A stretch of 40,911 nt of DNA from an uncultured Candidatus Saccharibacteria bacterium (lineage in GTDB: Bacteria > Patescibacteriota > Minisyncoccia > 2-02-FULL-40-12 > IGHO2-12-FULL-4), in the NCBI GenBank assembly GCA_964479745.1, contig CAYZNJ010000002.1, forward strand, positions 1-40,911, read 5' to 3'. Under the pieces are notes generated by a model that saw only the letters and a program-made list of their open reading frames with translations, was not told the DNA's origin and ran no database searches. Made by a program: the position numbers and the translations under genes. Shown in pieces: positions 2,082 to 33,536 of this stretch. Within the stretch, counting starts at the first letter, position 1, and every line of letters begins with the position of its first letter.

Positions 2082-3395
2082 TTAGTGCAAGAAGGTTTTT
2101 GCGCTAGATTTTTTTGATAACAAAGAGGGTAGGTCGTTAATTGAAATTCTCTCTTGCTTTGTAGTATCCCGGTCTCGCACGGTAACTTTTTTATCTTCAA
2201 GAGAGTCAAAATCAAAGGTTATGCAAAAAGGCGTACCGATTTCATCTTGGCTGTAATAGCGCTTGCCGATATTTCCCCTGTCGTCCCAAGCCACGCGAAA
2301 ATCTTCTCTTAAATCATCAAAAACTTCTCTGGCTTTTTTAACCAGTTCCGGTTTATTGGCAACCAAGGGAAAAACTGCGACTTGATATGGCGCTAGTTTT
2401 GGATGCAATTTCAAAACAACTTTATCTTCGTCCTCGCAGTAAGCGTCCAAAAGGAAGAACAGGGCAGCCCTGTCAACTCCGCCTGAAGTTTCAATAACCC
2501 ACGGCGTGTACTCTGTGTTAGTTTCCGGATCTTTGTATTTCAAATTATGCCGGCTCAAGTCCCAATCGCCCCGATGATGTATGCCTTCAAATTCTTTCCA
2601 GCCGAAAGGCGAGTTATACTCTATGTCTTCCGCCATGCGAGCATAGTGGGCAAGTTCGTTATCGGCATGTTTGCGGAATCTTAAATTCTCCGGCCTAATG
2701 CCTAAACTTTTATACCAGTCTAATCTTTGATTTTTCCAATAGTCAAAAACTTTCTCCGCTTCTTTTTCATCGGGCTTAACAAAGTACTCCAATTCCATCT
2801 GTTCAAACTCCCGGCTGCGGAAAGTAAAGTTACCCGGCGTGATTTCATTGCGAAAGGCTTTGCCGATCTGGCCAATGCCAAAAGGAACTTTTACCCGGCT
2901 CGAAGAAACTACATTGGCAAAGTTTACGAAAACGCCTTGAGTAATTTCACCGCGCAAATAGGTTTTCTCTTTCGGCTCGGTAACGCCCAGATAGACTTCG
3001 GTCAAAAGATTAAAGGTTTTGGCTTCGGTCCACTCAACTTTTTCTTTATGCTCGCTTTCATGTTCTTTAAGTTTATCTTCCTGGTCTGCCCGGACTCTTT
3101 TGTGGCAGATTTTACATTCCACCAAAGGATCAACCAAACTTTTGGTGTGACCGGAAGCTTCCCAGACCTGCGGATTCATAATTATCGCGGCGTCCAGACC
3201 AACCACATCGTCTCTCCTGTAAACCATATCCCGCCACCACATTTTTTTGATATTATTTTTTAGTTCAACGCCCAACGGCCCGTAATCCCAAAAACCGGTT
3301 AAACCTCCGTAAATCTCTGATCCCGGAAAAATAAAACCCCGCCTTTTGCAAAGCGAAACAACTTTTTCCAGCAAATTGTCATTGTTTTTTGTCAT
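2082..3395 (-). CDS. glyQS: Glycine--tRNA ligase (class II, alpha2 type)
   Basis: 437 aa. The N-terminus RGFIFPGSEIYGGLTGFWDYGPLGVELKNNIKKMWW is the hallmark GlyRS opening. Class II core FRNEITPGNFTFRSREFEQMELEYF is present, as is the C-terminal anticodon-binding part QVAVFPL...GKRYYSQDEIGTPFCITFD. Confidence 0.95.
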   Translation of the reverse strand: MTKNNDNLLEKVVSLCKRRGFIFPGSEIYGGLTGFWDYGPLGVELKNNIKKMWWRDMVYRRDDVVGLDAAIIMNPQVWEASGHTKSLVDPLVECKICHKRVRADQEDKLKEHESEHKEKVEWTEAKTFNLLTEVYLGVTEPKEKTYLRGEITQGVFVNFANVVSSSRVKVPFGIGQIGKAFRNEITPGNFTFRSREFEQMELEYFVKPDEKEAEKVFDYWKNQRLDWYKSLGIRPENLRFRKHADNELAHYARMAEDIEYNSPFGWKEFEGIHHRGDWDLSRHNLKYKDPETNTEYTPWVIETSGGVDRAALFFLLDAYCEDEDKVVLKLHPKLAPYQVAVFPLVANKPELVKKAREVFDDLREDFRVAWDDRGNIGKRYYSQDEIGTPFCITFDFDSLEDKKVTVRDRDTTKQERISINDLPSLLSKKSSAKTFLH

Positions 3396-3413
3396 GACAT
3401 TTCAAAAAGCGCA

Positions 3414-3561
3414 GCAGATACAGCCCTTGAGGTCACTGTGAGCTCGCGGTTGGCTAGGTTGGAAGGAGTATAATGTTTCTTTAACTCCTTCCGCAACCCG
3501 AGCGAACAGTGAGTGAGCCTGCCGCTGGAGCAGGCGAAAGTACCGAAAGGGCTGTATCTGC
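3414..3561 (+). repeat. Structured intergenic element, copy A of a 3-member family (short version)
   Basis: 15-bp perfect closing stem GCAGATACAGCCCTT (3414-3428) / AAGGGCTGTATCTGC (3547-3561). Internal hairpins are GGAAGGAGT-loop-ACTCCTTCC (3461-3492) and CCTGC-CGCTGGA-GCAGG (3518-3534). The same loop and architecture occur in copies B and C with different stems. Confidence 0.75.
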
Positions 3562-3577
3562 GAAGCTTGAATAATGA

Positions 3578-5353
3578 CTATTCAACCACACTCCCCTGCC
3601 CGGGGAAATCAACCAAATCGTCAGTGGTAATATCTTTAACCTTAACCGAAATCGCCTGCTTGGTAAAGGTGTCTTCGCCATCCATAAAAGTGTCCTGCAT
3701 CAGCTTAATCGTCTGGCCGACATTGTTGCTTGAAGGCGTAAAAGAAATCTGGAACCATGCTTGATATTTAGGAAACTGGTTGCCGACTCCGGACGGCAAG
3801 GCTCCTAAGTCCCAAACAACCTCTCTTGAACCCGTCTTAAACGAAGGCGCAGGTAATTGACCACTGGCTCTAGCTTTGTTTTCCCAGTTTGTCCCCACCG
3901 GCAAAACACCCTTAACCCTAATTTTTGAAAACTCGCCGGAAGAGTTGCTGACCTCCCACAAAACAGTATAAAAAGTTTTTTTGTTAACTTTCGGGGGTAT
4001 GGGACCGGTATTACCAAAGGTCTCATCTTTGTAAAAAGCTGTCTGGCTTAAAACCGGCAGTGAGGCAATTTTGGTAACCAGTTCTGACTCGGCCGTCAAT
4101 TTTTCCAAATCAAAACCGGCGGGCACCGTTGCTGTTTCAGCCTTTGCGCTAACCTTAATTACAAAATCTTTTGCGCCCAGGCCGCTGCCCGCAAAATTGC
4201 TTTTTAGTTTGACTCTAAAGTTTACCGCGCCTTCTTGGCGCGCCGCTAACCTGTTTAAAAGAGGCGAGACAGAAGCGTTCCAAGTAACTGTTCTGGAAGA
4301 GCTTTCAAAAAATCCGTCGCTTAGCAAACTGGATAAGTCAAACATTGAACCATCTAGTTTAACTGAAACGGTTATGCCCAAAAGACTGACATCCGTGTTG
4401 TTGGCAAATTTAATTTCATAATTTAACTCATCTCCCGGCTGAGCGATGTAGTTACTTTTGCCGTTGACCGAAATTTTAGTTGATAACGGCGGAGTTGAAA
4501 TGACAGTGGTTGAAGAGGCTTTTTCATAGTCAATAAATATGCCGTCAACTTTTCTCTGCAAAACAACAGCGACCTGCTTGCTTTCTCTTTCGGAACCTCG
4601 CAAGGTTCCGAAAACAGAAATTCTTTTTCCTTCTCCTGATTTTATGCTCTTTATGTCCCAGATGTTTGGACTAACGGAAGGCAAAGGGTCGGTTCGAGTT
4701 TGGCTAAAACCGTCGGGATATGCAAATTTAAGTTTCAAGTCAGACAAGTCTTCCGGCGACTCGTTCCGGTAATCCAAAAGGTAAGCAACTTCTTGTCCGG
4801 AAACCGTGTTCGGCGGAGCAACCAAAGTCAAAGAAACCGCCAAAGAACTTATGTTAGTAGCCAAAGTGGCTTCTTTCTCAAAAGTTGACCGCACTTTTTC
4901 CGGAGAGTAAACCAGCAGAGAGCGGGCTTTTTTTATATCGCCCCGATCCCCCACCAGATAAGCGGAAAACTCAACTTTGTTACTTTGTCCCGAACCCAAA
5001 TCAGGCAGTTTGATGTTCTCTGTTAAAAATTGGCTGACTTGGCCGTCTTTTACTACGACCGACTCGGGTGGATAAAAAAAGGTTAACTTAAGGTCCCGAA
5101 GCATTTCTTTGTTGTTGTTTGAATACTCAACTTCGTAGCTAACTTTCTCGCCCGAGGAAGTTTCCACCGGCCCGTTAATTTTAAACTCCACACCGCCTTC
5201 GCTGAAAGAAGACCGGTAAAAGAAAAATAAAATCAAACCGCCGGCAATAAAAATCAGGGCTAAAACAAAAACCAAAACTAGCCATTTTTTACTTTTTCTG
5301 CCAGCCATTTTGGGTTGGGACTGGAAGTTAAGAGGAGTAATCTCAAAATCCAT
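3578..5353 (-). CDS. Large membrane-anchored or secreted protein with repeated beta-sandwich-like segments (hypothetical)
   Basis: 591-aa ORF with N-terminal TM WLVLVFVLALIFIAGGLILFFFY. It has recurring segments of similar style (..GEKVSYEVEYSNNN.., ..GQEVAYLLDYRNES.., ..GDELNYEIKFANNT..), which suggests tandem Ig/CARDB/DUF11-like repeats. The family assignment is not verified. Confidence 0.7.
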   Translation of the reverse strand: MDFEITPLNFQSQPKMAGRKSKKWLVLVFVLALIFIAGGLILFFFYRSSFSEGGVEFKINGPVETSSGEKVSYEVEYSNNNKEMLRDLKLTFFYPPESVVVKDGQVSQFLTENIKLPDLGSGQSNKVEFSAYLVGDRGDIKKARSLLVYSPEKVRSTFEKEATLATNISSLAVSLTLVAPPNTVSGQEVAYLLDYRNESPEDLSDLKLKFAYPDGFSQTRTDPLPSVSPNIWDIKSIKSGEGKRISVFGTLRGSERESKQVAVVLQRKVDGIFIDYEKASSTTVISTPPLSTKISVNGKSNYIAQPGDELNYEIKFANNTDVSLLGITVSVKLDGSMFDLSSLLSDGFFESSSRTVTWNASVSPLLNRLAARQEGAVNFRVKLKSNFAGSGLGAKDFVIKVSAKAETATVPAGFDLEKLTAESELVTKIASLPVLSQTAFYKDETFGNTGPIPPKVNKKTFYTVLWEVSNSSGEFSKIRVKGVLPVGTNWENKARASGQLPAPSFKTGSREVVWDLGALPSGVGNQFPKYQAWFQISFTPSSNNVGQTIKLMQDTFMDGEDTFTKQAISVKVKDITTDDLVDFPGQGSVVE

Positions 5354-5912: not shown

Positions 5913-5938
5913 GGGGGAATAAATACGGATTAATCTTA

Positions 5939-6120
5939 GTTTAGTTATTTTCCGTCGAATATGGCCGAGCAGTGCAAATAAACAAAGGTTTTAGAAATCT
6001 CGGTCGGCAACAAAAATTAGGAGGGATGGTTTCGACCGGTCACCTAATTTTTGTCGACGAGATGAGAAAATCAAGTATTATTTGCCTGCGAGGTCCATCT
6101 CGTAAGGAAAGTAACTAGAC
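5939..6120. repeat. 182-nt nearly continuous imperfect hairpin element (element D)
   Basis: Nested arm pairs: GTTTAGTTATTTTCC (5939-5953) / GGAAAGTAACTAGAC (6106-6120); TGCAAATAA / TTATTTGC; AAATCTCGGTCGGCAACAAAAATTAGG (5995-6021) / CCTAATTTTTGTCGACGAGATGAG (6043-6066). The apex contains GGT-TTCG-ACC. Arm mismatches are mostly T/C, i.e. G-U pairs if the plus strand is the RNA. Confidence 0.7.
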
Positions 6121-6129
6121 TGAGATTTA

Positions 6130-9100
6130 TTATTTTTTGATCCCTAGCCAAATTTTCTTTTGCGGCGCCAGTTCAAACTCTTTTTGAATGTCAAAAACTT
6201 TATCGCCTTCCGCATGAGCCAAAGAAAAATCTTTCAGCAAGGCATTCTTTTTTATAAATTCTTCCCAACTCGCCACTGCATTTTTAAGCTCCCCGTCTTC
6301 AGTATGCCACTGGCAAAAAACTTTTTCGTTAAAGCGGTAACCTGCTTCTTTTCTCATATCCTGAACCTGCCGAAGCAACTCCCTGGCCCAGCCCTCTTGA
6401 AGCAGTTCTAAGGTCAACCTGTCATCAATAGTAATTTCTTCTTCCTGTTTCGGATCGTATTTTAAGTTTTTTACGTTCAGTTCGTCTTTAATCAATGTTT
6501 CAAGTTCTTCCGCCAATTTTTCGCTTCTCTTTACAACCGCGCTAGCCAAAGGCTGTCTGACTTTGATTTGTTTGTTTTTTCTGTAAGCCAAGCCGAGAGC
6601 GACAAATTTCCTGACTTCTTCCATGTCTTGGATAAGTTTATAATTTATAGTTTTTAGTTTATAGTCCTTTGAAGATGGGTAGTTGTGAAAATGAACGCTC
6701 TCGGTCACAGCCGACGCACCTTTGTGGAGGTCATGGTGAAGTTTTTCGGCAATAAAAGGCGTAAAAGGCGCAATAATTTTTGCAATTTCCAGCAACAAAA
6801 ACCTTAACAAAGCCAAAGATTCTTTAAGAGACTCTTCCGACTCCGGCCTTTGGAACTTAATTCTTGACCTTCTCAACCACCATTTGGAAAAATCCTCTGT
6901 GACAAAACTTTCAATTGCCCGCGTAGCGGTAGTCGGATCATATTCATCCATAGATTTGGCAACGACTTCGGTTGTTTGGTTCAAACGGCTAAAAATCCAC
7001 TGATCCAGCAGGCTTGCTGGTTTAGTTTTGTGGAAATTAACCGTAAAATTTTTGTTATCCAGATTATACAATTCAAAAAACCTGAATGAGTTCCATAAAA
7101 TCATAACAAAACCCCGCAAACGCAAAGCCACTTCATCTAAAGAGAAGAGTTTAGTCTCGCCCGGATTATTTACCGAGTAAAAGTACCAGCGCACCGCGTC
7201 AACGCCGAATTTATCCATCACCATCCAAGGATCAACCACATTGCCCTTGGACTTAGACATCTTTTGCCCTTTTTCGTCTAAAACATGGCTGTAAGAAAGC
7301 ACATTTTTGTAAGCCGGGCCTTCGCCAAGCAAAGTTGAGACAGCTAGCAAGGTGTAAAACCAGCCCCGGGTCTGGTCTATAGCTTCGGCAATAAAATCTG
7401 CCGGAAATGCCGACCCAATCTTATTTCTATTTTCAAACGGATAATGCCATTGGGCGTAAGGCATGGCGCCAGAATCAAACCAGACATCGGCCACTTCTTT
7501 AATTCTCTGCATCTTGCCCTTGCAACTGGGACAACTTAAAAACACTTCGTCAATATAAGGACGGTGCGGATTTGCCCGGCCGCTTTCATCCCAAGGCAAG
7601 TTTTTAAGCTCCGCTTTATAAAATTTGCCTTTTTGGGGATACAGGTCTCTTTGTTCGTTGTTAACCACCCTAAGTAATTTTTCATCCGGCCAGCCGAACA
7701 AACTGCCGCTAAGCACCGCCAGCGGATCGCCATGGCTGACAATCAAAATATTTTTGCCTTCATGCTTTTTGTCTGTCTCCAGCATGAAGTTAATCATCCT
7801 CTTTTGAACATCGCCCCAGCTTTCACCGTCGCCGAATTTGTAATCCAAACTGGTAACAGGTTTTGGATGCTGTGCCAAGCAAAAAGATTCGCTCCTGCCC
7901 TCGCAAATACTTCCATGGCTTATTTCGCGCAGTCTTTCGTCAAAGTAAATTTTTGCGCCGGTAGACTTACTCACGATTTCCGCCGTTTCTTTGGTCCTTA
8001 AGAATGGAGAGGAGTAAATAGCATCTACTCCGTCTTTTTTCAATTTCATCGCCTCCCGTTCAACTTCTTTTCTTCCTTCGTCAGCAAGAGGGTATTTGTC
8101 ATTTTCCAGCTTGGTGTTTATTATCTTGTCAGAGTTCTTGACGCTAAAGCCGTGGCGCATAAAAAAATAGTTGTTTTTCTTTCGCCAGCGGTGTTTCTCT
8201 AAGTCTTCAAAGGAACCGACAACCTGCTGATGGCCGTTGGCGCATTCCCAAATAGGCAAAGGGGTGCCCCAGTATCTCTCTCTTGAAATCGCCCAATCCT
8301 TTACTCCCCTCAACCACTCGCCAAATCTGCCCTCTTTTAAATGCTCCGGATACCAATTAACTTTCTGGTTGTTTTTTATAAGTTTCTTGTCCAGCTTTGA
8401 CATGCCGATAAACCACGAGTCAGTGGCATAGTACAAAAGAGGCGTTCCACACCGCCAGCAAAAAGGATAATCATGCTCATATTTTTCTTCTTTAAACAGC
8501 AACCCTTTTGACTTCAAATAGTCTAAGATCCTAGCTTCAGTTTCCGGGTCTTTAACAAGTCTGCCGGCTAGTTCTGAAACGTCTTGAGTAAATTTGCCAG
8601 TTTGGTCCACGGTGTGGTGGCGAGGCAATCCAATTTTCAAGCCTAGATTGTAGTCGTCCTCGCCGTACATCACCGCCGTATGCACCACGCCTGTACCGTC
8701 TTCCGTAGTCACAAAATCCGCCGGATAAATTTTGTAAGATTTTTCCGACTTTAATTTTGGTATCTCAAAAAGAGACTCGTATTCCAAGCCAATAAGGTCT
8801 TTGCCACTAACGCTATGAACCCGTTCCACCGTATGGCCCTCAAAAACTTTGTTAACTAGATCTTCTGCAACTATCAAAAGCTCTTTTATTCCGTCTACTC
8901 TCACGGCGGCATATTTTATTTTTTCCCCGACAGCCAAAGCTACATTGCCAGGCAAAGTCCAGGGGGTTGTCGTCCAAGATAAAATATAAAAATCTTGAAC
9001 CGGAGCGAGCACCTCTTTTGAAGCTGGTCGGCGACAAGTCCGACCCAAAAAAGAGGCGCTTGCGGAGGTTAATTTAAATTTTATAAATACGGAACCTTCT

Positions 9101-9693
9101 GTGACGCTTTTGTAACCTTGCGCCACTTCATGGCTGGACAAAGTCGTACCGCAACGAGTGCAAAACGGCACAACTTTGTGTCCTTTGAAAAGCATTTTTT
9201 TATCCCAAACTTTTTTCAAAATCCACCAGAGAGTTTCTATGTAATTTGGGTCGTAGGTGATATAAGGATTTTTAAGATCTAGCCAAAAACCAATGCGTTT
9301 AGTAAACCGCTCCCACTCTTCTTTGTACTTCCAGACGCTCTCTTTCGCCTGCTTGTTGAACTTAGCAATTCCGTATTCCTCAATTTCTTTTTTTGATTTT
9401 AGGCCGAGGGATTTTTCAACCTCAATTTCCACCGGCAAGCCATGGGTGTCCCAACCGGACTTTCTTTCAACATAAAAACCCCGCATTGTTTTATAGCGGC
9501 AGAACAGATCCTTAAAAACTCGGCCGATAAGATGGTGAATTGCCGGTTTAGCATTGGCCGTCGGCGGACCTTCAAAGAAAATAAAAGGTTTGGCTTTTTT
9601 CCGCCGTTCCAGACTTTTTTCAAAAACTTTATTCTTCTCCCAAAAGTCTAAAACTTCTTCTTCAATTTTTTTAAAATTAAATTCGTCTGGCAT
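6130..9693 (-). CDS. ileS: Isoleucine--tRNA ligase carrying a nested histidine-phosphatase-like domain
   Basis: 1187 aa. IleRS motifs: PPTANAKPAIHHLIG (HIGH region), WTTTPWTLPGN (CP1 editing), GTGVVHTA, WAISRERYWGTPLPIW, KMSKSKGN. About 205 extra residues (aa ~502-707) between PLPIWEC.. and ..HRPYIDEV carry RHGFSVKN, SSPFLRTKETA and ILIVSHGD. Confidence 0.95.
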   Translation of the reverse strand: MPDEFNFKKIEEEVLDFWEKNKVFEKSLERRKKAKPFIFFEGPPTANAKPAIHHLIGRVFKDLFCRYKTMRGFYVERKSGWDTHGLPVEIEVEKSLGLKSKKEIEEYGIAKFNKQAKESVWKYKEEWERFTKRIGFWLDLKNPYITYDPNYIETLWWILKKVWDKKMLFKGHKVVPFCTRCGTTLSSHEVAQGYKSVTEGSVFIKFKLTSASASFLGRTCRRPASKEVLAPVQDFYILSWTTTPWTLPGNVALAVGEKIKYAAVRVDGIKELLIVAEDLVNKVFEGHTVERVHSVSGKDLIGLEYESLFEIPKLKSEKSYKIYPADFVTTEDGTGVVHTAVMYGEDDYNLGLKIGLPRHHTVDQTGKFTQDVSELAGRLVKDPETEARILDYLKSKGLLFKEEKYEHDYPFCWRCGTPLLYYATDSWFIGMSKLDKKLIKNNQKVNWYPEHLKEGRFGEWLRGVKDWAISRERYWGTPLPIWECANGHQQVVGSFEDLEKHRWRKKNNYFFMRHGFSVKNSDKIINTKLENDKYPLADEGRKEVEREAMKLKKDGVDAIYSSPFLRTKETAEIVSKSTGAKIYFDERLREISHGSICEGRSESFCLAQHPKPVTSLDYKFGDGESWGDVQKRMINFMLETDKKHEGKNILIVSHGDPLAVLSGSLFGWPDEKLLRVVNNEQRDLYPQKGKFYKAELKNLPWDESGRANPHRPYIDEVFLSCPSCKGKMQRIKEVADVWFDSGAMPYAQWHYPFENRNKIGSAFPADFIAEAIDQTRGWFYTLLAVSTLLGEGPAYKNVLSYSHVLDEKGQKMSKSKGNVVDPWMVMDKFGVDAVRWYFYSVNNPGETKLFSLDEVALRLRGFVMILWNSFRFFELYNLDNKNFTVNFHKTKPASLLDQWIFSRLNQTTEVVAKSMDEYDPTTATRAIESFVTEDFSKWWLRRSRIKFQRPESEESLKESLALLRFLLLEIAKIIAPFTPFIAEKLHHDLHKGASAVTESVHFHNYPSSKDYKLKTINYKLIQDMEEVRKFVALGLAYRKNKQIKVRQPLASAVVKRSEKLAEELETLIKDELNVKNLKYDPKQEEEITIDDRLTLELLQEGWARELLRQVQDMRKEAGYRFNEKVFCQWHTEDGELKNAVASWEEFIKKNALLKDFSLAHAEGDKVFDIQKEFELAPQKKIWLGIKK
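7573..8190 (-). other. Histidine phosphatase (PGAM-like) superfamily domain inserted in-frame in ileS
   Basis: R513-H514-G515-x4-N520 is encoded at 8149-8157 (CGC CAC GGC on the minus strand). SSPFLRTKETA and LREISHGSICEG follow, and the second catalytic His is in IVSHGD (CAT at 7732-7734). There are no intein-like termini. Confidence 0.75.
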
Positions 9694-9727
9694 TTGAGTT
9701 TTGATAAAAAGTTGCTAAAATTGCGGG

Positions 9728-10147
9728 ATGAGGAAAAACTACGGTTTCTGGCTCTTAGTTATTGTTTTTTTAGTAAATATAACTTTCGGATTGGGACTTG
9801 ATTGGTACAAGAAGTTCTGGTTCTTTGATGTAATTCTGCATTTTTTGGGCGGCTTGGGCGTGTATATCGTTGCCCGGGAATATTTTTCTAAAGACTTCAG
9901 GGAAAATTCTTGGATAAGATATTCCTTGCTCTTGGTTGGCATTGTTATGTTTGTTGGAGTTCTTTGGGAGTTCACAGAGTACAACATTAATATCGTCTGG
10001 AGAGCAAGGCTTCAAAACATACAAGTAATAGGCGATTTAGACGACACCATGAAGGACCTTGCTATGGATATGCTTGGCGGCATTATCGGAGCAATTTCAC
10101 ATTTTTTCTGGCATAGAAAGTCCCAAAAGACTCAAACTGTTTCTTAA
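9728..10147 (+). CDS. Small integral membrane protein (about 4 TM), hypothetical
   Basis: 139-aa ORF with ATG start 34 nt from the divergent ileS start. Hydrophobic segments are FWLLVIVFLVNITFGLGL, VILHFLGGLGVYIVA, LLLVGIVMFVGVLW and MLGGIIGAISHFF. Its 3' end overlaps the convergent argS by 51 nt. Confidence 0.6.
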   Translation: MRKNYGFWLLVIVFLVNITFGLGLDWYKKFWFFDVILHFLGGLGVYIVAREYFSKDFRENSWIRYSLLLVGIVMFVGVLWEFTEYNINIVWRARLQNIQVIGDLDDTMKDLAMDMLGGIIGAISHFFWHRKSQKTQTVS

Positions 10148-11707
10148 CACGATAACCGAAGCATAAACCAGCGTCAATCTGGTTTTTTCTTTTTCTTTTT
10201 CAGCGCCGATAACTTTTTGGCTCTCATAAAAACGGTTAACCTTACCGGCTAGATCCAAAATATAAGTCGCCAAATGATGAATCTGATAGTTTTGGCCTAT
10301 TTCCAGCAAAATTTCCGGAAATTTGATCAACTCCTTAACCAACTCCGCTTCTTCTTTTTCCCATGTCGCCTTTTTGGCGATCTTTTTTTCTATTTTAATT
10401 TTCAGCTCTTTGGCTTTCCTCAATATACTTTGCATACGGACAAAAGCATACTGGATATAATAAACGGGGTTTTTGTTTGACTCTTCTTTGGCCAAGTCCA
10501 AATCAAATTCAACATGGCTGTCCATTGATTTAGCCAAAAAGAAAAATTTGACCACATCTGATGGCACTTCTTTAACAAGTTCATCCAAAGTTATAAACCG
10601 GCCGGCCCTTTTGGACATCCTCACTTGCTCCCCTTTTTCCACCAAAGTAACCAGCTGGTAAAGCAAAAAGTTAAACTTTTCTTCGGACAACTTCATGGCT
10701 CTTAGGCCAGATTTTATTCTTGCCACATCTGCGTGATGGTCGGTGCCCAAAATATATATCATCTTATCAAAGCCTCTTTTTAATTTATTTTTAGCGTAAG
10801 CGAAGTCCGATAACAGATAGGTGGTAAAGCCATTTGATTTTTTAATAACCACATCGCTGTCCAAACCGAAGTTCGAAGCCTTGAACCACAAAGCCCCGTC
10901 TTTTTCGTAAGAAAGATTGTTGACTTTCAGATAGTACAGAACATCATCAAGTTCGCCGTGATTTTCCAGCTCGTTTTCCGGAAACCAAACATCGTGTTTA
11001 ACTCCGAAGAGCGCGAGAGAGTCTTTGAGAGAAGCGGTAATTTTTTCAACGGCGTATTTTTGGGCCGATTTAATCAAACTCTCAAAATCATCCAAAGAGC
11101 CATGATAAACTCCTTCTTTTTTTAAGTCTTTGGCAATTTCTAAAATATATTCTCCTTGATACATTTCTTCCGGATAATCCGTTTGCCGTCCGTTCAGCTC
11201 TAAAAATCTCCGAGCAACAGATTCTCCAAGCAAGGCCACTTGCCGGCCGAGGTCGTTTAAAAAATATTCTTTGATAACTTTGTGGCCAAGAAAGTTAAGA
11301 AGTCTGGCCAAACTTTCGCCGTAAGCCGCAGAACGGCCGTTGCCCAGCGTCAGCGGCCCGGTGGGGTTGGCTGAAACAAATTCAAGATTTATTTTTTTGC
11401 CTTTGCCATTTTTCGCTGAACCGTACTTTTCTCCCTTTTTTAAAACTTCCTGCAGTTCCTCATTTAAAACTTCTTCGCTTAAGTGAAAGTTAATAAAACC
11501 TGGCTTAACCAGTTCAATTTTGGAAAAAAGCCGGCTGAATTTTTTATCTTTCTTCAAGTCCGACAAAATTTCCTCGCCTACATCCATGGGGCTTGCTTTT
11601 TTCTCCTTTGCCAAAACCAGAGGCAAATTGCTTGAATAATCGCCAAATCCAGCCGGCGCGAAAGACACCTCCCCGCCCAATTTCTTTTTTATTTCTTCTT
11701 TAATCAC
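10097..11707 (-). CDS. argS: Arginine--tRNA ligase
   Basis: 536 aa. Motifs: SANPTGPLTLGNGR (HIGH region, non-canonical), MSKRAGRFITLDEL (KMSKS-equivalent MSTR-like) and a DALR-type anticodon domain YYIQYAFVRMQSIL ending in ..M, as is usual for ArgRS. Confidence 0.93.
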   Translation of the reverse strand: MIKEEIKKKLGGEVSFAPAGFGDYSSNLPLVLAKEKKASPMDVGEEILSDLKKDKKFSRLFSKIELVKPGFINFHLSEEVLNEELQEVLKKGEKYGSAKNGKGKKINLEFVSANPTGPLTLGNGRSAAYGESLARLLNFLGHKVIKEYFLNDLGRQVALLGESVARRFLELNGRQTDYPEEMYQGEYILEIAKDLKKEGVYHGSLDDFESLIKSAQKYAVEKITASLKDSLALFGVKHDVWFPENELENHGELDDVLYYLKVNNLSYEKDGALWFKASNFGLDSDVVIKKSNGFTTYLLSDFAYAKNKLKRGFDKMIYILGTDHHADVARIKSGLRAMKLSEEKFNFLLYQLVTLVEKGEQVRMSKRAGRFITLDELVKEVPSDVVKFFFLAKSMDSHVEFDLDLAKEESNKNPVYYIQYAFVRMQSILRKAKELKIKIEKKIAKKATWEKEEAELVKELIKFPEILLEIGQNYQIHHLATYILDLAGKVNRFYESQKVIGAEKEKEKTRLTLVYASVIVLRNSLSLLGLSMPEKM

Positions 11708-11761
11708 TTTAAAATCATAGCATTTTGCTTTTAATTTTGGAATATTCTAAAATTGAGTATG

Positions 11762-11974
11762 GAGTTTCGTGAATATTGCTTTTGGAGGCTCTGTGAGTTG
11801 TGGATTGCTAGCCATCGAACTTACAGCCCATTCGCCGTTAGGCGGATAAGCTGTAAGTCTGATGGCGTGGTCTGGACAGCTTTCTTAAGCTGAACAGAAT
11901 CCACATCTCACAAAGAGCGAGTCCCGCCGCTGGAGCGGGACGAGCGTCCGGAAAAAGCAATGTTCAACAAACTC
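11762..11974 (+). repeat. Structured intergenic element, copy B (213 nt), 15 nt upstream of the htrA start
   Basis: Closing arms GAGTTTCGTGAATATTGCTTTT / AAAAAGCAATGTTCAACAAACTC. Nested pairs: GCTCT-GTGAG..GTGGATT with AATCCAC..CTCAC-AA-AGAGC, and CATCGAACTTACAGC with GCTGTAAGTCTGATG. Side hairpins are CAGCTT-TCTT-AAGCTG (11877-11892) and GTCCCGC-CGCTGGA-GCGGGAC (11921-11941). Confidence 0.8.
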
Positions 11975-11989
11975 TACAACTAAACAAAT

Positions 11990-13051
11990 ATGCAATCAGA
12001 CGAAAAACAAACAATAGATATAGTCAAAAAAGTTACGCCGGCGGTGGTTAGCATCAGCGTCAGCAAGAATTTGTCTCAAATCAAGGAGTCGTCTTCCAGT
12101 CAACTTGGACCGGGCTTAAGCCCCTTTCTTTTTGACCAACCTGAAACGAAAGAACTCGGCAAGCCAGAAGACCAGAAAGTAAAAATCGGCGGCGGCTCGG
12201 GTTTTGTCGCTGACTCAAACGGCATAATTTTGACCAACAAACATGTTGTCATTGACCCCGACGCGGAATATGTCGTTATTACCAGCGACGAAAAAGAATA
12301 CGCCGCCAAAGTTTTAACTCGAGATCCGGTAAACGATATTGCTATATTAAAAATAGACGCCAAAGAACTGCCTGTGGCAAAACTCTCAAACTCAAAAATA
12401 GAGCCGGGACAGACAGTCTTGGCAATCGGCAACGCTCTCGGCCTTTTTTCAAATACTGTTTCAAAGGGCATCGTCTCGGGATTAGCACGTAAAATTTCGG
12501 CCGCCATGGGCAGTGAAGGCAACGAACAGCCGGAGGTTGAAGAATTAAGAGGCGTGATCCAAACCGATGTTGCCATCAATCAAGGCAATTCCGGCGGTCC
12601 GTTAATTAACACCGACGGCGAGGTTGTCGGTATAAACACAGCTGTAATTTTCGGCGCTCAAAACATCGGTTTTGCCATTCCGGTTCAGTGGGCTAAAAAA
12701 GATTTAGAAGATTTAATTAAATTCGGCAGAATCATCAGGCCATACATAGGCTTGCGTTACATAATGCTCAATAAAGATTTTCAGAAAAAATACAAGCTAC
12801 CCGTAGATTACGGCGCTTTGATTGTCCAGTCTCATGCCCCCGGCCCGGCCGTGGTTAAAAACTCCCCCGCCGACAAAGCCGGCCTCAAAGAGAATGACAT
12901 TGTCTTGGCAGTTAACAGTGAAAAGATTGACGAAAAGAAAGACCTGGCCGACATGATTCAACTTTTCAAGGCTGGCGATGAGGTCGAACTAACTTGCCTT
13001 CGTAAAGAAAAGGAACACAAAATGAAAGTATTGTTAGAAGAAAGAAAATAA
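11990..13051 (+). CDS. htrA: HtrA/DegP-family serine protease with C-terminal PDZ domain
   Basis: 353 aa. The catalytic triad contexts are TNKHVV, NDIAILKI and GNSGGPLIN. PDZ-like segment GALIVQ...SPADKAGLKENDIVLAVN. There is no N-terminal signal or TM segment, and an in-frame TAA lies at 11981-11983 upstream of the ATG. Confidence 0.9.
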   Translation: MQSDEKQTIDIVKKVTPAVVSISVSKNLSQIKESSSSQLGPGLSPFLFDQPETKELGKPEDQKVKIGGGSGFVADSNGIILTNKHVVIDPDAEYVVITSDEKEYAAKVLTRDPVNDIAILKIDAKELPVAKLSNSKIEPGQTVLAIGNALGLFSNTVSKGIVSGLARKISAAMGSEGNEQPEVEELRGVIQTDVAINQGNSGGPLINTDGEVVGINTAVIFGAQNIGFAIPVQWAKKDLEDLIKFGRIIRPYIGLRYIMLNKDFQKKYKLPVDYGALIVQSHAPGPAVVKNSPADKAGLKENDIVLAVNSEKIDEKKDLADMIQLFKAGDEVELTCLRKEKEHKMKVLLEERK

Positions 13052-13061
13052 AACTTGCCAC

Positions 13062-13090
13062 AAAAAAATCTCGCTAGCGGCGAGATTTTT
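13062..13090. terminator. Bidirectional rho-independent terminator between the convergent htrA and HExxH genes
   Basis: AAAAAAA-TCTCGC-TAGCG-GCGAGA-TTTTT: a GC-rich stem flanked by an A-run and a T-run. Confidence 0.7.
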
Positions 13091-13487
13091 ATTTTGTTTC
13101 TCCTCTGGGCAAAAAGGTTTTTAAAAAATTTCTCTGCTCTTGAGTAAAACCCGTGGAGAGTATTAGTGTTATTTGTTCTATAAAAGACTCTCTGGTCTTA
13201 AAAAAAAGAACATGGCATACCTCGTGAATAAGAGTCTCTAGTTCCTCGTCGCGGTTTTTGTGCTTACTCTTTGCCGAGTTTATGGTAATTTCTATGAAAT
13301 GGCCCCCCGGACCAACTTCCGGTTCCATTAGACCCCAAATAGCTTTTCTGTGCCGATCCTTGGGATAACATAATCTTTTCTTTCTTTTTATTCTTAGTGT
13401 CTCTCGGCGAAGAAAAAAGACAAACTGCTTAAAAATCCAATCCAGCAACTTGTCCCCACTTAGAGGGACTTCGCGCAACGAGATCAT
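13089..13487 (-). CDS. Small hypothetical protein with HExxH motif (possible minimal metallopeptidase)
   Basis: 132-aa ORF. HEVCH sits in the context ELETLIHEVCHVLFF. No other recognisable features. Confidence 0.5.
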   Translation of the reverse strand: MISLREVPLSGDKLLDWIFKQFVFFLRRETLRIKRKKRLCYPKDRHRKAIWGLMEPEVGPGGHFIEITINSAKSKHKNRDEELETLIHEVCHVLFFKTRESFIEQITLILSTGFTQEQRNFLKTFLPRGETK

Positions 13488-13509
13488 GGCCCCTCCTTTT
13501 CAAAGAGCT

Positions 13510-13537
13510 TTGGTTAAAGATTTAAAACCTTTATAAT
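13510..13537 (+). promoter_or_regulatory. Candidate sigma70-type promoter for smpB
   Basis: TTGGTT (13510-13515), 16-nt spacer, TATAAT (13532-13537), 21 nt upstream of the smpB ATG. Confidence 0.4.
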
Positions 13538-13558
13538 ACAAAAGTAACAAAAATCAAA

Positions 13559-14005
13559 ATGACATACGCGACTAATCCCAGAGCGCAATTTGATTACAAC
13601 ATTTTGGAAAAGCTGGAAGCCGGTTTAGTTTTGTCGGGACAAGAAGTAAAGTCAATCAAAAACGGCAAGGTTTCAATCCGAGGCGCTTTTGTAAAAATTT
13701 TAAATAACGAAGCATGGCTTATCAGCGCCGTAATTTCTCCTTACCAGCCCGGCAACACACCGCCGGATTACGACCCTCAACGCACCAGAAAACTTTTGCT
13801 GAAGAAAAAAGAGGTGAATTACCTCTTTGAAAAATCGCAGGAAGCGGGACTGGCTATCGTGCCGCTTAAGCTTTACGGAAAAAAGAATCTGGTTAAACTG
13901 GAAATCGGCCTCGCCCGCGGCAAAAAGAAATACGACAAGCGGGAAACAATCAAGAAACACGAAGAAGAAAAGAAAATTAGGCAAAAATTAAAAAACTACT
14001 TGTAA
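13559..14005 (+). CDS. smpB: SsrA-binding protein SmpB
   Basis: 148 aa. NPRAQFDYNILEKLEAGLVLSGQEVKSIK.GKVSIRGAFV, ..YDPQRTRKLLLKKKE.. and a basic C-terminal tail are typical of SmpB. The tmRNA gene lies about 1.1 kb downstream. Confidence 0.93.
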   Translation: MTYATNPRAQFDYNILEKLEAGLVLSGQEVKSIKNGKVSIRGAFVKILNNEAWLISAVISPYQPGNTPPDYDPQRTRKLLLKKKEVNYLFEKSQEAGLAIVPLKLYGKKNLVKLEIGLARGKKKYDKRETIKKHEEEKKIRQKLKNYL

Positions 14006-15072
14006 ATTTTAGCCAGCGCCGCAAAATTTTCTTTGAAGGGTTCGTTTTCTACCAAAGTCGGAATTTTGTTCAGAAGATACTTGAGAACTTCCACAAAAAT
14101 CTTTTCAGCTCTTTTTGCTCTGGCCCTTCCCTCTCCACCTTTTGCATCAAAAGGGCTTCTTCTTAAAGGAATATCAACAAGCAAAGCTCCCATAACTCTT
14201 TCAAATAAAAGCAGATTAAAGCCTATAAAAAACTGGTTCCTTAGTTCTTTCGGGCAAGTCCCATAAAACGCACCTCTCCATTCTTGAATATCTTCTACCA
14301 CGCCCTCTTTCTCACTGTCATGGACATACATCAGCATATTCCAAACAAAGTAAGCCGCTCCATAAAATTGGGGCAGAGGGACAATCTCGGAGCTTGGCAG
14401 ATAAAAGTTATCGCCTTGAACAACTATGTCGGTATTGCCAAAGTTTTTGAAAAACAACCCCATTTCTAAGTCAGCAATCTCCCCAAGGTCAGTTTCATAA
14501 AACACATACCTGAAAAAATCATCAGCAACAGTTCTTAAAGTTTCCAGTTTTTGTTTACTTGCTTTGCTTTTGCAAGATTTCCCCAACTCAACCCACTTTT
14601 TTAGCCTGTCTCTAAAAAAATCTTCAAAGTTAGCTTTGGATTCCGCTTGCTCTATGCGGGAGAAAACATCAACTGTGTTCCAATACAAGTTAGCAATATT
14701 AAACTTTTCAAGACCGTCAAAAAACGGAAAGTCTCTCAACAATCTTGTTCCATCAACTCTTTCTTTGGTAAACCAGCAACAATCCTCCTCTGTCTTTATC
14801 TCTAAAATACAGGGAAGAAGAATGTGGGGTTTTGGAGCCTTGCTCTGGGCAACTTTGTAACTGCCGTCTAGCAATAAGAAATCTGGATCAATAAAATCCT
14901 TCGGACCAGCAAAAAGAGTTACCGACCCACTTTTGGTAAACCCGTGAATAATTTTACACTTATAATCGTTGGGTCCGAGTTTAGGCATCCAGCCTTTTTG
15001 AGTTGGATCTTCCTTAAAACCAATCTCTTTTGCCACTCGTCTATAAAGTTTCTCCAGTTCTGATTTTTTCAT
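13996..15072 (-). CDS. Hypothetical protein (358 aa); weak resemblance to the kinase/APH-like fold, unverified
   Basis: Long ORF with ATG start. It overlaps the convergent smpB by 10 nt. The segment FFKNFGNTDIVVQGDNFYLP vaguely recalls the HxDxxxxN region of APH-type kinases, but the catalytic residues are not conserved. Confidence 0.55.
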   Translation of the reverse strand: MKKSELEKLYRRVAKEIGFKEDPTQKGWMPKLGPNDYKCKIIHGFTKSGSVTLFAGPKDFIDPDFLLLDGSYKVAQSKAPKPHILLPCILEIKTEEDCCWFTKERVDGTRLLRDFPFFDGLEKFNIANLYWNTVDVFSRIEQAESKANFEDFFRDRLKKWVELGKSCKSKASKQKLETLRTVADDFFRYVFYETDLGEIADLEMGLFFKNFGNTDIVVQGDNFYLPSSEIVPLPQFYGAAYFVWNMLMYVHDSEKEGVVEDIQEWRGAFYGTCPKELRNQFFIGFNLLLFERVMGALLVDIPLRRSPFDAKGGEGRARAKRAEKIFVEVLKYLLNKIPTLVENEPFKENFAALAKIYK

Positions 15073-15108
15073 GCTTAAATAATACCTCTTCTAATTTTCA
15101 AAAAAACA

Positions 15109-15137
15109 TTGACATTAGGTTAACATAGAAGTATAAT
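15109..15137 (+). promoter_or_regulatory. Consensus sigma70 promoter of ssrA
   Basis: Perfect TTGACA (15109-15114), 17-nt spacer, perfect TATAAT (15132-15137), 18 nt before the mature tmRNA 5' end. Confidence 0.8.
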
Positions 15138-15155
15138 TAAATCAAATTTTTTGTC

Positions 15156-15503
15156 GGGCTCGAAAGGCTTCGATAGAGATAAAGTTCATTTAGAGGCAAG
15201 GGAAGGATGGCTATCACCTTCTAAAACTTTAGCCAAAACAAGAAGTGCCAATCAAAATTACGCACTCGCTTACGCTTAATATAGCTTAGGCCGTTTTGCC
15301 CTCAATTCTCACTAGAGGGACAAGGCGTCATCAGTGAGATATATTGTCGGCCCTCGGCTTCGCGGACCGCCAAAGAAACTAACCGAAGCGATCGTTTGGT
15401 TATTTTGCCTGTTCTTACCCAAATGATTAAAAAAATGGGATAACCTTGTAGTCTCTGACTGGCTTAATTTCTAGACGGGATTTCAATATCCCCGAGTCCA
15501 CCA
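15156..15503 (+). ncRNA. ssrA: tmRNA (transfer-messenger RNA), 348 nt, CCA encoded
   Basis: 5' GGGCTCG pairs with 3' CGAGTCC, including the G3-U pair used as the Ala identity element, followed by A-CCA (ends at 15503). GGCTTCGA lies near the 5' end and a T-arm-like GGGAT-TTCAAT-ATCCC before the acceptor 3' strand. The internal tag reading frame is GCC AAT CAA AAT TAC GCA CTC GCT TAC GCT TAA (15247-15279), giving ANQNYALAYA. Confidence 0.9.
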
Positions 15504-17958: not shown

Positions 17959-18022
17959 GGTTATCAACACTTGGAGATTGATTTTAGTTTTCTGTCAGTC
18001 TCCGCTGTGTGATACAATTAAG

Positions 18023-18868
18023 ATGATGTTTAGACAACTAAACAAAAAGTTAAATCTGCTTCCGCTTTCCTTTGCACTTATTACAATTCCCTGCACCGAC
18101 AGCGCCGGCATTGGTGAATGCGTTTCCGGGTTATACAACTGGAGCCTCGCGATTGTGGGGATAGTTGCTTTTGTCCAGATAATTTATGCCGGCTGGCTGT
18201 ATTTGAGTGCGGCGGGCAACACTAGCAAAACCGGCGACGCAATGAAAAAAATATCCAATGCTGTTTTGGGCATTGTTTTGCTTTTCTCTTCTTACTTAAT
18301 TCTGAATACCATCAATCCTGATTTGGTGGGAGAAAGCTTCGGCCTACCTGACCTTAAAAAAGATAAGATTGAGGACATAGATTACAGCGGCACAAGCACG
18401 ACGTCAAATACCACCACGACAATCCTGCAATCAAGCACAACTACGCTAGCGAGTGGAACAACAACGACAATAAACCCCAACACTCCAGACTGGTCTAGCA
18501 TAACCCCTGCCACGCCATTGGCTGTTAGCTTCCGCGATTATATCCAGCTTGACGACATACTAGGTCATATTGGTCCCGGCACTGATGCTGAAGTTTGTTT
18601 GGTCGGTTCCGGATTTGCACCAGGAATGGGTTTGTATGTATCGGGCTTAGGTACTTTTCTCATTACTCCTCACACCACCACTAAAGCCACACTACATCTC
18701 AACGCTTCCGATAACAGATTCGCTCCAGGTTGGCAAAATATAACGCACAGCGGGGGTGAAGTGGCCTACTTTCAAAGGGGAGAATACACAACAGACTTTA
18801 TACTTATCTATCTAGATCTAGAAAACGGCCTAGGCACAGTACGTCCGCAAAAACCCTGCAATAATTGA
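18023..18868 (+). CDS. Pilin-module protein: N-terminal VirB2/TrbC-like two-helix module, Thr-rich linker, C-terminal domain
   Basis: The ORF track starts at TTG 17978. ATG-ATG at 18023 gives a better signal-like N-terminus, MMFRQLNKKLNLLPLSFALITIPC. Module: ECVSGLYNWSLAIVGIVAFVQIIYAGWLYLSAAGNTSKTGDAMKKISNAVLGIVLLFSSYLILNTINP. Linker: GTSTTSNTTTTILQSSTTTLASGTTTT. Confidence 0.7.
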   Translation: MMFRQLNKKLNLLPLSFALITIPCTDSAGIGECVSGLYNWSLAIVGIVAFVQIIYAGWLYLSAAGNTSKTGDAMKKISNAVLGIVLLFSSYLILNTINPDLVGESFGLPDLKKDKIEDIDYSGTSTTSNTTTTILQSSTTTLASGTTTTINPNTPDWSSITPATPLAVSFRDYIQLDDILGHIGPGTDAEVCLVGSGFAPGMGLYVSGLGTFLITPHTTTKATLHLNASDNRFAPGWQNITHSGGEVAYFQRGEYTTDFILIYLDLENGLGTVRPQKPCNN

Positions 18869-19662: not shown

Positions 19663-19999
19663 AGTAAAAAGAGGAAAAACTGCAAACAAAAGAAGGAAAA
19701 ATTTGCTGAAGCACGCAAAGGGTTTTATGTGGACCCGAAGCACCAAATATCGCCAAGCCAAGGAAGCTCTTTTGCACGCCTGGTCTTTCCAGTTTGCCGA
19801 CCGCAAAAAAAAGAAAAGCAATTTCCGCCGCTTGTGGCAAATAAAAATAAACGCCGGCGCCAGAGAAAACGGTTTATCTTACAGCCAGCTTATTAACAAG
19901 CTCAAAAAAGCTAACATAGAACTGGATAGAAAAATCCTTTCCGACCTCGCCCATCACGAACCGGAAGTATTTAAAAAAATAGTTGAGTCACTAAGATGA
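19655..19999 (+). CDS. rplT: 50S ribosomal protein L20
   Basis: 114 aa. MPRVKRGKTANKRRKNLLKHAKGF...RRLWQIKINAGARENGLSYSQLINKLKKANIELDRKILSDLA is typical L20. It overlaps rpmI by 8 nt. Confidence 0.95.
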   Translation: MPRVKRGKTANKRRKNLLKHAKGFMWTRSTKYRQAKEALLHAWSFQFADRKKKKSNFRRLWQIKINAGARENGLSYSQLINKLKKANIELDRKILSDLAHHEPEVFKKIVESLR

Positions 20000-20028
20000 C
20001 GAAATACTGAGCACAGTAGTGCGAATGT
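20000..20028 (+). repeat. 29-nt hairpin motif, copy E1 (directly after the rplT stop codon)
   Basis: CGAAATACTGA-GCAC-AGTA-GTGC-GAATGT. Copies E2 and E3 lie in the opposite orientation. Confidence 0.7.
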
Positions 20029-20054
20029 GTAGTCTGAACGTATTGAAACAGCTC

Positions 20055-20089
20055 AAAAATAAAATCCTCTTTCAAGAGGATTTTATTTT
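20055..20089 (+). terminator. Rho-independent terminator of the infC-rpmI-rplT operon
   Basis: AAAATAAAATCCTCT-TTCA-AGAGGATTTTATTTT. Confidence 0.8.
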
Positions 20090-20308
20090 AGCAGAGTATT
20101 TTTGAAATAGTTCGAACCCATTTTGGCCAGAAATCTGAAAAATCTGTCTGAAAATCTGAACCGCAATTCTGAATCAGACAATTTCAAGTTTTTCTTTGGC
20201 GGAGTTCGGATTATTGAAATTCTAACGAATTTCAGTCTTGGCGGCAAATTCTTTGAAAAATAAAAGCGGCTTGATATTATCGCACCGCTGATGATCAACT
20301 GTATCAGG

Positions 20309-20758
20309 TTAAACCTGACTTCGTAGGCAATCGACAATCCTTATAAGACGCCTGCTATACGGAAAGCAAAGGCCAATGATCCTTGGTTCAAGACTCTCAA
20401 ACCAAAGCAGGGTAAAACTGTTTTCTGGCATGATCCGGAGATACCACTCATACATAAGGATACGCCAGGAAAAACCATCTTTGTTCTGAATGCTGATTTC
20501 AAATGAATCAGCAAAGAAACCGCCAGCAGGATGATAGTCAAGAAGCTGATAATCTCGTGCGGAAACTTTTGCCATCAACATGTCGAGAACTTCTCTCTGC
20601 TGCCTCCGAGGCATTCTTATGGATCGCCGCTTTGATGCTTCTTTCTGCCACTCCAAATAGGAAGCGGCCCATTCAGCTGATCCACCAAGTGCTGATATCG
20701 CCTGACTTGCGGTGACTCCTATCGGTCCGACCGGTTCAACAAAAGCATTGTTATTCAT
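20309..20758 (-). CDS. Hypothetical protein (149 aa) inside a GC-richer island
   Basis: Longest ORF in the rplT/tRNA-Glu interval. It has an ATG start and no recognisable motifs. Local GC is higher than in neighbours (hand count 32/60 at 20581-20640). Confidence 0.45.
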   Translation of the reverse strand: MNNNAFVEPVGPIGVTASQAISALGGSAEWAASYLEWQKEASKRRSIRMPRRQQREVLDMLMAKVSARDYQLLDYHPAGGFFADSFEISIQNKDGFSWRILMYEWYLRIMPENSFTLLWFESLEPRIIGLCFPYSRRLIRIVDCLRSQV

Positions 20759-29611: not shown

Positions 29612-29630
29612 AGACACCTCCTCTCATAGT

Positions 29631-33510: not shown

Positions 33511-33536
33511 TTTAAAAAATTTCTACGCATCAACTT

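Follow-up and report, generated by a model that had tools for sequence, protein, structure and literature searches.

The spacer between argS and htrA in contig CAYZNJ010000002.1 (assembly GCA_964479745.1), a 40,911-nt stretch from an uncultured Candidatus Saccharibacteria bacterium that is here termed the window, contains a folded element, copy B, which belongs to a superfamily of dispersed repeats, small and non-coding, that are resident in the short intergenic spacers of Paceibacteria-type Patescibacteria (candidate phyla radiation, CPR). The fold of these repeats is maintained by compensatory substitutions, the family is previously undescribed in Rfam 15 or in a full-text literature search, and the element is not a leader specific to htrA. 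On balance, and with little more than even confidence, we interpret it as a dispersed element akin to REPINs and Rickettsia palindromic elements (RPE), whose folded single strand, either RNA or single-stranded DNA (ssDNA), is recognised by a putative trans-acting factor.

Fold and covariation of the element family

An initial annotation of the window had described three homologous intergenic elements, A, B and C (Table 1), with differences that preserve pairing, and both direct reading and alignment of the three stretches bear out this homology. In all three, the side hairpin P6 presents an identical CGCTGGA loop on unrelated stems (GTCCCGC/GCGGGAC in B, GCTTTTT/AAAAAGC in C and CCTGC/GCAGG in A), and the stem adjoining GTGGATT/AATCCAC reads GTGAG/CTCAC in B and GCGG/CCGC in C, a difference correctly reported as double substitutions. 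A hairpin with a TATAAT-containing loop changes from G:C to A:T between A (GGAAGGAGT/ACTCCTTCC) and C (GGAAAGAGTA/TACTCTTTCC), its place in B being occupied by an unrelated hairpin (CAGCTT-TCTT-AAGCTG). The outer closing stems differ in sequence yet pair in every case, the four conserved unpaired or junction blocks are present as originally described, and a 60-nt arm found in both B and C is missing from A. The limits first proposed for B and C stand, whereas A is slightly wider than initially drawn (3407-3568). Folded as RNA, the three copies yield z-scores of -11.5 (B), -11.2 (C) and -9.1 (A) against dinucleotide shuffles, and RNAalifold assigns them 71 common pairs, with compensatory change in 28.

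Covariance modeling and a scan against Rfam had been proposed as checks on these observations, and both were carried out. A first pattern, based on the element's 3' portion, was run against a collection with a single genome for each GTDB species and returned 58 loci. Its genuine matches, established with nhmmer, all lie in metagenome-assembled genomes (MAGs) of Patescibacteria: two Candidatus Yanofskybacteria, one Paceibacterota, one Nealsonbacteria, one unclassified 'bacterium' and one submitter-labelled Saccharibacteria. A covariance model (R1), built from 27 copies and providing rough E-values, detects two to three copies in many of the 8-kb loci, diverged subtypes included. A second pattern, restricted to the 5' part of the element, was scanned over JGI/ENA metagenomes and contributed 50 loci with about 60 more copies. 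Each of the two collection scans fixed part of the motif, and the sequence covered corresponds to the surroundings of pattern matches, up to 14 kb; sampled loci are designated by L-numbers, several of the metagenome contigs are second assemblies of DNA already present as MAG contigs, and gene calls are crude longest open reading frame (ORF) calls. Overall, about 90 further copies were collected, all of them in Patescibacteria MAGs or groundwater metagenome contigs. Neither pattern recovered copies from IMG/VR, where a single chance match was rejected by the model, and BLAST of copy C against GenBank phages and PLSDB plasmids returned no match. At the gathering threshold, Rfam 15 identified only a tmRNA and two tRNAs in the whole window; copy B searched at E-values up to 10 gave only noise, and four loci with variant copies searched up to 0.1 gave only tmRNA, so that no family matched the element. 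A full-text literature search for such elements in CPR produced nothing relevant.

On one strand, every copy adopts a rod-shaped fold, closed by a ~20-bp stem (P1) of free sequence. After P1 come a conserved G.A-rich junction (5'-GNA/5'-GNA in long forms, tandem G.A in the short form and the X type), P2/P3, a P4 arm that may be missing, P5 and the side hairpin P6 with its invariant CGCUGG loop. Forms span about 75 to 280 nt and comprise a long form (about 215-280 nt, with a P4 arm bearing AGCCCAUUCG..AUAAG), a short form (A type, about 160 nt), an X type, a more diverged subtype and a mini form (about 75 nt). The termini are the least conserved part of the element and the internal loops the most conserved. 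In 17 of 64 copies, pairing in P1 extends outside the modelled limits by at least 3 bp, and by 11 bp at most, which indicates either that its length is free or that copies reside inside pre-existing palindromes. A sarcin-ricin-like GUA/GAA loop in P1 was discarded, since it occurs in a minority of copies and most are Watson-Crick paired at that location.

Covariation across the family is extensive. In a MAFFT alignment of 27 copies (A3), 95.6% of the cells are paired, compared with 75.0% in shuffled alignments and 38-51% with slid partners, and 42 of the 52 pairs change on both sides. The covariation score of this alignment (0.603) exceeds those of shuffled (0.208) and slid (0.08-0.13) controls, and none of 500 shuffles attains it. 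A second set of 42 metagenome copies, chosen by the 5' pattern alone and hence unselected in its 3' half, behaves similarly (96.3% paired, 43 of 52 pairs changing, score 0.588 against 0.205), although its alignment is model-fitted and flatters the structure, a bias from which the MAFFT alignment is free. Over both sets, ~96% of cells are paired, with slid controls at 36-52%; because copies are interrelated and some loci are duplicates, these significance figures are indicative only. The unselected 3' half of the 42-copy set keeps GAAUCCAcAg, CAAnGAGcgag, CGCuGG and cGAgCGUcCGgAAAAAG at 70-90% or more, the blocks kept beside the P6 loop being GAAUCCACAG, CAAnGAGCGAG and CGAGCGUCCGGAAAAAG, and the X-type and diverged copies found by the model alone carry the CGCUGG loop on different stems. 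The conservation is therefore not a product of the search patterns.

The strand on which the fold operates can also be discerned. G.U and U.G pairs outnumber A.C and C.A mismatches by about 41:4 in A3 and 64:29 in alignment A14, and in 53 of 64 distinct copies the complement folds less stably than the sense strand, by a median of 5.6 kcal/mol. The fold thus favours one strand, in a manner that fits RNA and ssDNA alike, and the original proposal of selection on a fold, made on the basis of covarying stems around conserved loops, is supported for that strand.

Genomic context, turnover and an in-frame copy

Flanking genes, tabulated as the initial annotation had advised, are unrelated housekeeping genes with no shared function (argS, htrA, other aminoacyl-tRNA synthetase (aaRS) genes, ndk, recA, obg, epimerases, glycosyltransferases, peptidases and PolX). 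A copy next to ndk in another species shares 94.5% identity with B, and a Yanofskybacteria MAG (L037) has, at an unrelated site, a copy 92% identical to A, with unmatched flanks in both instances; B is also about 90% identical to copies in two Yanofskybacteria, and subtypes hold 89-94% identity across species. Among 83 distinct copies, 37 lie antisense to both neighbours, 21 are sense, 11 sit in divergent and 4 in convergent spacers, and 10 have a neighbour on one side only, as the locus ends there. The 3' end closely adjoins gene boundaries, at a median of 6 nt from a convergent stop codon in antisense orientation (n=38) and of 15 nt from a downstream start (n=26, a value biased low by longest-ORF calls), with 26 copies ending 3-30 nt before a start codon; the median distance from the 5' end to the nearest gene is 50-66 nt. 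Four head-to-head pairs, with 5' ends facing, were observed (L048 13-482, L051 1862-2254, L009 2895-3310 and L064 2406-2886), three of which combine an X-type and a canonical long copy with 5' ends 14-23 nt apart; such pairs could reflect a preferred site for nested or adjacent insertion, or a composite unit.

No fixed distance upstream of P1 shows an enrichment of -10-like hexamers, assuming a sigma-70-like consensus in CPR, the 3' flanks contain no T-run terminator, and several copies lie directly behind the terminator of the upstream gene. Nothing points to a small RNA (sRNA) gene driven by its own promoter, a position-locked -10 box and a T-run both being absent. The TATAAT in the P5 loop was likewise set aside as an outward promoter, as it does not correlate with a downstream start codon and is absent in the B subtype. 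A protein-coding element was discarded because the antisense open frame shifts relative to the conserved motif and half of the copies are stopped in all frames. The antisense strand is nonetheless poor in stop codons, both in the window (33505-33753, +) and in equivalents in 19 loci, and antisense ORFs of 70-100 amino acids (aa) cluster as a pseudo-family; such spurious ORFs probably give rise to false hypothetical proteins when CPR MAGs are annotated. No recurrent neighbour emerged as a mobilising partner, the gene clusters being epimerases, glycosyltransferases, aaRS, Obg, NDK, RecA, PolX and others, and no transposase was detected among 56 scanned neighbouring ORFs. Likewise, no insertion sequence (IS) with matching ends was found in about 110 sampled loci, and direct-repeat lengths at 64 junction pairs equal those of a re-paired flank control, providing no indication of a target-site duplication (TSD). 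The GC skew of the window is uninformative on the replication strand, because it tracks gene strand.

Upstream of copy B, a sigma-70-like promoter (Table 1) predicts transcription from about 11760-11762, in which case B would form the 5' leader of htrA. Lying downstream of this conserved promoter, B is probably co-transcribed as a highly structured 5' leader, and it ends 15 nt before the htrA ATG at 11990, as initially reported. Any effect on htrA is regarded as incidental to the landing site, because relatives carry the same subtype inverted, or another subfamily, at the htrA site. One such relative (L064) is a metagenome contig syntenic with window positions 9344-15493 and about 80% identical to it; at B's site, the flanks are conserved (htrA start and TTGCTT-17-TAAAAT promoter), and the copy between them shares only about 65-70% identity with B, both P1 arms being rewritten and still complementary. 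The window has a single copy in the argS-htrA spacer, and L064 has two in head-to-head arrangement. A copy of B type in L092, 88% identical in the 5' part that could be aligned, abuts the same htrA junction (AAACT|CTACAA..ATG) in opposite orientation, resulting from either inversion across the P1 arms or re-insertion.

Further comparisons of orthologous sites, between genomes with flanks 75-90% identical, reveal recurrent turnover. The element is absent from one of the orthologous spacers of L012 and L006, where the L006 spacer has ~22 nt of non-homologous sequence; a full copy in L058 corresponds to a mere 3'-arm remnant in L020; L024 and L054 have different subtypes in opposite orientations at one site; and another site holds a long copy (L004), a short inverted copy (L029) or an X copy together with another repeat (L078). 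At four orthologous sites, on the other hand, copies of the same subtype have been kept at 98.5, 98.7, 90.7 and 88.2% identity, whereas the flanking 60-400 nt are mostly 68-87% identical. Changes within retained copies are mostly compensatory (5 of 6 changed pairs in the L024/L054 pair). That retained copies exceed their flanks in identity points to purifying selection, or some other upkeep of uniformity, and not to neutral decay.

A mini copy resides, antisense and in frame, within the ORF encoding IleRS (6130-9693, -). It is a 74-nt hairpin (z = -4.65), matched by R1 at 8985-9081 (32.6 bits, E 5e-8), with 77% column identity to intergenic minis in two MAGs (L009 and L013). The copy encodes 24 codons (about aa 209-232, TSASASFLGRTCRRPASKEVLAPV) that probably lie in a variable surface loop before the WTTTPWTLP motif; the segment is missing from the Thermus thermophilus IleRS 1ILE and from 8C8W, and the loop is longer than in 12 of 13 CPR homologues. 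As separate observations on this protein, the 1187-aa IleRS carries a His_Phos_1 (histidine-phosphatase) domain at aa 510-676, between two matched stretches of the catalytic domain, and among the closest IleRS entries from CPR, many are gene calls marked 'partial', of 300-430 aa.

Candidate explanations

Taken together, the context, orientation, signals and turnover of the copies, along with the IleRS insertion, are typical of a dispersed, at least occasionally mobile repeat. The initial annotation had implied a locus-specific structured RNA, either an htrA leader or a discrete sRNA. This part of its reading is not supported, given that the ~90 sampled copies lie beside unrelated housekeeping genes, in both orientations and with no position-locked promoter, that copies are gained, lost, replaced and inverted at orthologous sites, and that one copy is in frame within IleRS.

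The closest counterparts of the family in lifestyle are REPINs and RPEs, while its architecture resembles that of a structured RNA gene, with optional arms, invariant loops and a free closing stem. REPIN/REP-BIME elements with RAYT, in Pseudomonas and enterobacteria, are extragenic high-copy hairpin repeats with no TSDs, in which the stem is kept by compensating changes in the arms; they persist at sites for long periods, are subject to selection at the family level and presumably involve a folded single-strand substrate (see also PMC3116915). The CPR family shares the extragenic hairpin repeat, the co-evolving arms and the lack of TSD. REPINs, however, are simple hairpins formed by two REPs of 20-40 nt, whereas the CPR element, in place of a two-REP structure, is a multi-branched fold of 160-280 nt: its side hairpins (P4-P6) are asymmetric, its loops invariant, its unpaired blocks conserved, some arms optional and its terminal sequence free. 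In the sampled DNA around its copies, neither a RAYT nor a Y1 gene was observed. REPIN/RAYT and IS200/IS605-type systems recognise structure and leave no TSD. RPEs are palindromic repeats of 100-150 bp that occur in a reduced genome both between genes and in frame at surface loops of essential proteins; no transposase is known for them. The mini copy in IleRS is one instance of this type of insertion at a tolerated loop. The CPR family differs from RPEs in its single coding insertion, in its conserved side hairpins and in having resident copies conserved above their flanks, and no sequence relation between the two was expected or seen.

Under the REPIN/RPE-like interpretation, the element would be a non-autonomous replicator, possibly domesticated, and its folded single strand, whether ssDNA exposed in replication or RNA, would be the substrate of a putative trans-acting protein. 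Such a protein may read the invariant P6 loop and the G.A-rich junction, and P1 would only have to pair, bringing both ends together. A P1 that acts merely as an end-joiner would account for the variable termini and the lack of TSD. Such a mechanism would follow the same logic as the REPIN/RAYT and IS200/IS605-type systems and would also be in line with RPEs.

Several observations weigh against this interpretation. Purifying selection on resident copies, the moderate antisense bias (37 versus 21) and the closeness of 3' ends to gene boundaries (medians of 6-15 nt, versus 50-66 nt at the 5' end) are not what a purely selfish element predicts, and all three fit a host function or an RNA gene family about as well. 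No mobilising enzyme turned up in the ~0.6 Mb of sampled neighbourhoods. No clean pair of filled and empty sites with exact junctions was recovered, because the genomes are too diverged (about 80%) and their spacers unalignable. The coding insertion amounts to one mini copy with a modest model score, in a protein whose closest homologues are only about 60% identical, and the loci are non-independent (duplicate contigs) and were gathered with patterns that fixed part of the sequence.

The main rival is a multi-copy family of trans-acting, protein-binding structured RNAs, dispersed like tRNA genes or Y RNAs, with each copy transcribed alone, P1 protecting its ends, and the conserved loops and junctions serving to bind protein or RNA; we take this possibility seriously while considering it doubtful. 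Strong covariation around invariant loops, the strand-specific tolerance of G.U pairs, the stability advantage of the sense strand, the far greater conservation of resident copies relative to flanks and the cross-species identity of subtypes would all be natural in RNA genes, as would a 5' spacer of at least 50 nt and a 3' end abutting the next gene, an arrangement expected with an upstream promoter. Transcription of each copy alone is at odds with the lack of a position-locked -10 element and of a T-run terminator, and with copies placed right behind an upstream terminator or within a leader. Remnants, empty sites, inversions, subfamily swaps and head-to-head pairs at orthologous sites, as well as the copy within the IleRS coding sequence, also argue against it.

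An ordinary MITE (miniature inverted-repeat transposable element), that is, an internally deleted DDE-type IS mobilised in trans, with the hairpin representing its terminal inverted repeats (TIRs), is unlikely. MITEs have conserved TIRs and TSDs and are related to an IS. Like Correia/NEMIS, ERIC, RUP and BOX elements, the CPR repeats are small, multi-copy, AT-flanked and intergenic, can be co-transcribed with neighbours and have the potential to form leader or 3'-UTR structures, and their long complementary ends and variable presence at orthologous sites are in line with a MITE. Conservation nonetheless runs the opposite way, the P1 arms being the most variable part and the internal loops and junctions the most conserved; the internal side hairpins covary beyond what TIRs explain, the two strands are asymmetric, and neither a TSD above the re-paired control nor an IS with matching ends was detected in any sampled locus. 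The initial annotation had named random, MITE-like scatter bounded by TSDs, with no strand or context preference, as grounds for abandoning a folded element: the scatter of a mobile repeat is indeed seen, TSDs are not, and strand and position preferences are present.

Quite unlikely, too, are orphan scaffolds of an RNA-guided system lacking its nuclease gene, such as OMEGA-type omega-RNAs of IscB/TnpB or PATE-like derivatives of IS200/IS605. There are precedents for large, strongly covarying, multi-copy structured RNAs on mobile DNA without TSDs, HEARO among them, and the CPR family combines a strand-specific fold with no TSD. Nevertheless, no HEARO, IS605-orfB or other Rfam family matched at the relaxed thresholds given above for B and the four variant loci, no TnpB, IscB or TnpA gene adjoins any sampled copy, and the variable part of the element, P1, is self-paired and does not supply a free guide segment. 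Finally, a cis-regulatory leader or riboswitch for htrA and other downstream genes, suggested by the position of B between a conserved promoter and the htrA start and by the 26 copies ending shortly before start codons, is very improbable, given that 38 copies abut a stop codon in antisense, that downstream genes have no common function, that copies spread over four orientation classes (37/21/11/4) and that relatives at the htrA site carry an inverted element or a different subfamily.

The window and the significance of the family

The four copies in the window, the parts of copy B and its neighbouring genes are listed in Table 1. Copy A is flanked, in antisense orientation, by genes for a class II aaRS (2082-3395, -) and a DUF11 protein (3578-5353, -), and copy C, in sense orientation, by genes for a solute-binding protein (33777-35099, -) and an SLT/T4SS-pilin protein (32170-33510, -).

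Table 1. Copies of the element in the window, components of copy B and features adjoining it
Feature	Positions	Strand	Remarks
Copy B	11762-11974	+	Long form, B subtype; 201.5 bits with model R1
Copy B, P1 closing stem	11762-11783 / 11953-11974	+	
Copy B, junction GGAGG	11784-11788	+	
Copy B, P2	11789-11797 / 11907-11917	+	
Copy B, P3	11799-11806 / 11898-11905	+	TGTGGATT / AATCCACA
Copy B, P4 arm	about 11810-11869	+	Contains AGCCCATTCG..ATAAG
Copy B, P5 hairpin	11871-11897	+	
Copy B, junction	11911-11921	+	CAAAGAGCGAG
Copy B, P6 hairpin	11921-11941	+	Loop CGCTGGA at 11928-11934
Copy B, 3' junction	11942-11952	+	GAGCGTCCGGA
Copy A	3407-3568	+	Short form without P4 arm; 134.7 bits with R1
Copy C	33537-33752	-	Long form, TATAAT-containing P5 loop; 233.5 bits with R1
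Mini copy	8998-9071	+	P1 stem and UUUUG.AG / AAAAAG junction around short hairpin GGTCGGCGACAAGTCCGACC
htrA (Trypsin_2 and PDZ)	11990-13051	+	Downstream neighbour of copy B
argS	10097-11707	-	Divergent upstream neighbour of copy B
Sigma-70-like promoter TTGCTT-17 nt-TAAAAT	11725-11753	+	Read upstream of B; kept in L064 (alignment A7)

Other repeats and insertions were observed in the window. The RecO-IleRS spacer (5925-6130) harbours a different, rod-like element of ~200 nt (RNA fold z = -8.6) with no CGCUGG loop. Related elements occur in L078 (2134-2276, 74% identical) and in L090/L105, making up a second family of structured repeats alongside the first in these genomes. At 19981-20930, inverted repeats of 48 nt (85% complementary) enclose ~850 nt with two ORFs (20083-20337 and 20309-20758, both -) that have no Pfam hits; the unit begins inside the 3' end of rplT, near tRNA-Glu, and is possibly a small IS-like insertion. 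GyrA (35755-39606, -) contains an intein with a LAGLIDADG homing endonuclease (Intein_splicing and LAGLIDADG_3). Five ORFs encode a T4SS_pilin domain (17978-18868, 29237-29617, 29710-30405, 30437-31594 and 32170-33510), the last of which has an additional SLT domain and a GTNGTNGT-type DNA repeat (32770-33090) that also occurs at 1-114 and 16177. The tmRNA gene (15156-15503, +; 123 bits with Rfam) lies near smpB (13559-14005) and is not called by ARAGORN.

The genomes of Patescibacteria, tiny and densely packed, are commonly portrayed as containing few repeats and little mobile DNA. In the present housekeeping region, four copies of a single family make up about 1.6% of the sequence, a second repeat family occupies another spacer, and the first family extends into an essential aminoacyl-tRNA synthetase gene. 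Its covariation is of the grade seen in RNA genes and its conservation exceeds that of neighbouring genes. R1 provides a ready covariance model to mask or annotate element regions, which are sources of spurious ORF calls, in CPR MAGs. HEARO and other earlier orphan structured RNAs present in many copies later proved to be guide RNAs, a precedent that makes an orphan family of such quality deserving of follow-up.

On a more far-reaching and less probable reading, the family may be the nucleic-acid half of an undescribed CPR-wide system of dispersed, protein-binding structured RNAs or folded ssDNA sites. The invariant CGCUGG loop, together with the G.A junction, would then attract a host factor dedicated to it, and selection would retain copies at gene boundaries, for instance for transcript-end formation, processing or insulation in genomes with very short spacers. 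The family offers a tractable case for the spread of structured repeats with neither transposase nor TSD, and its invariant loop and junction are a candidate handle for a nucleic-acid-binding factor in an uncultivated phylum.

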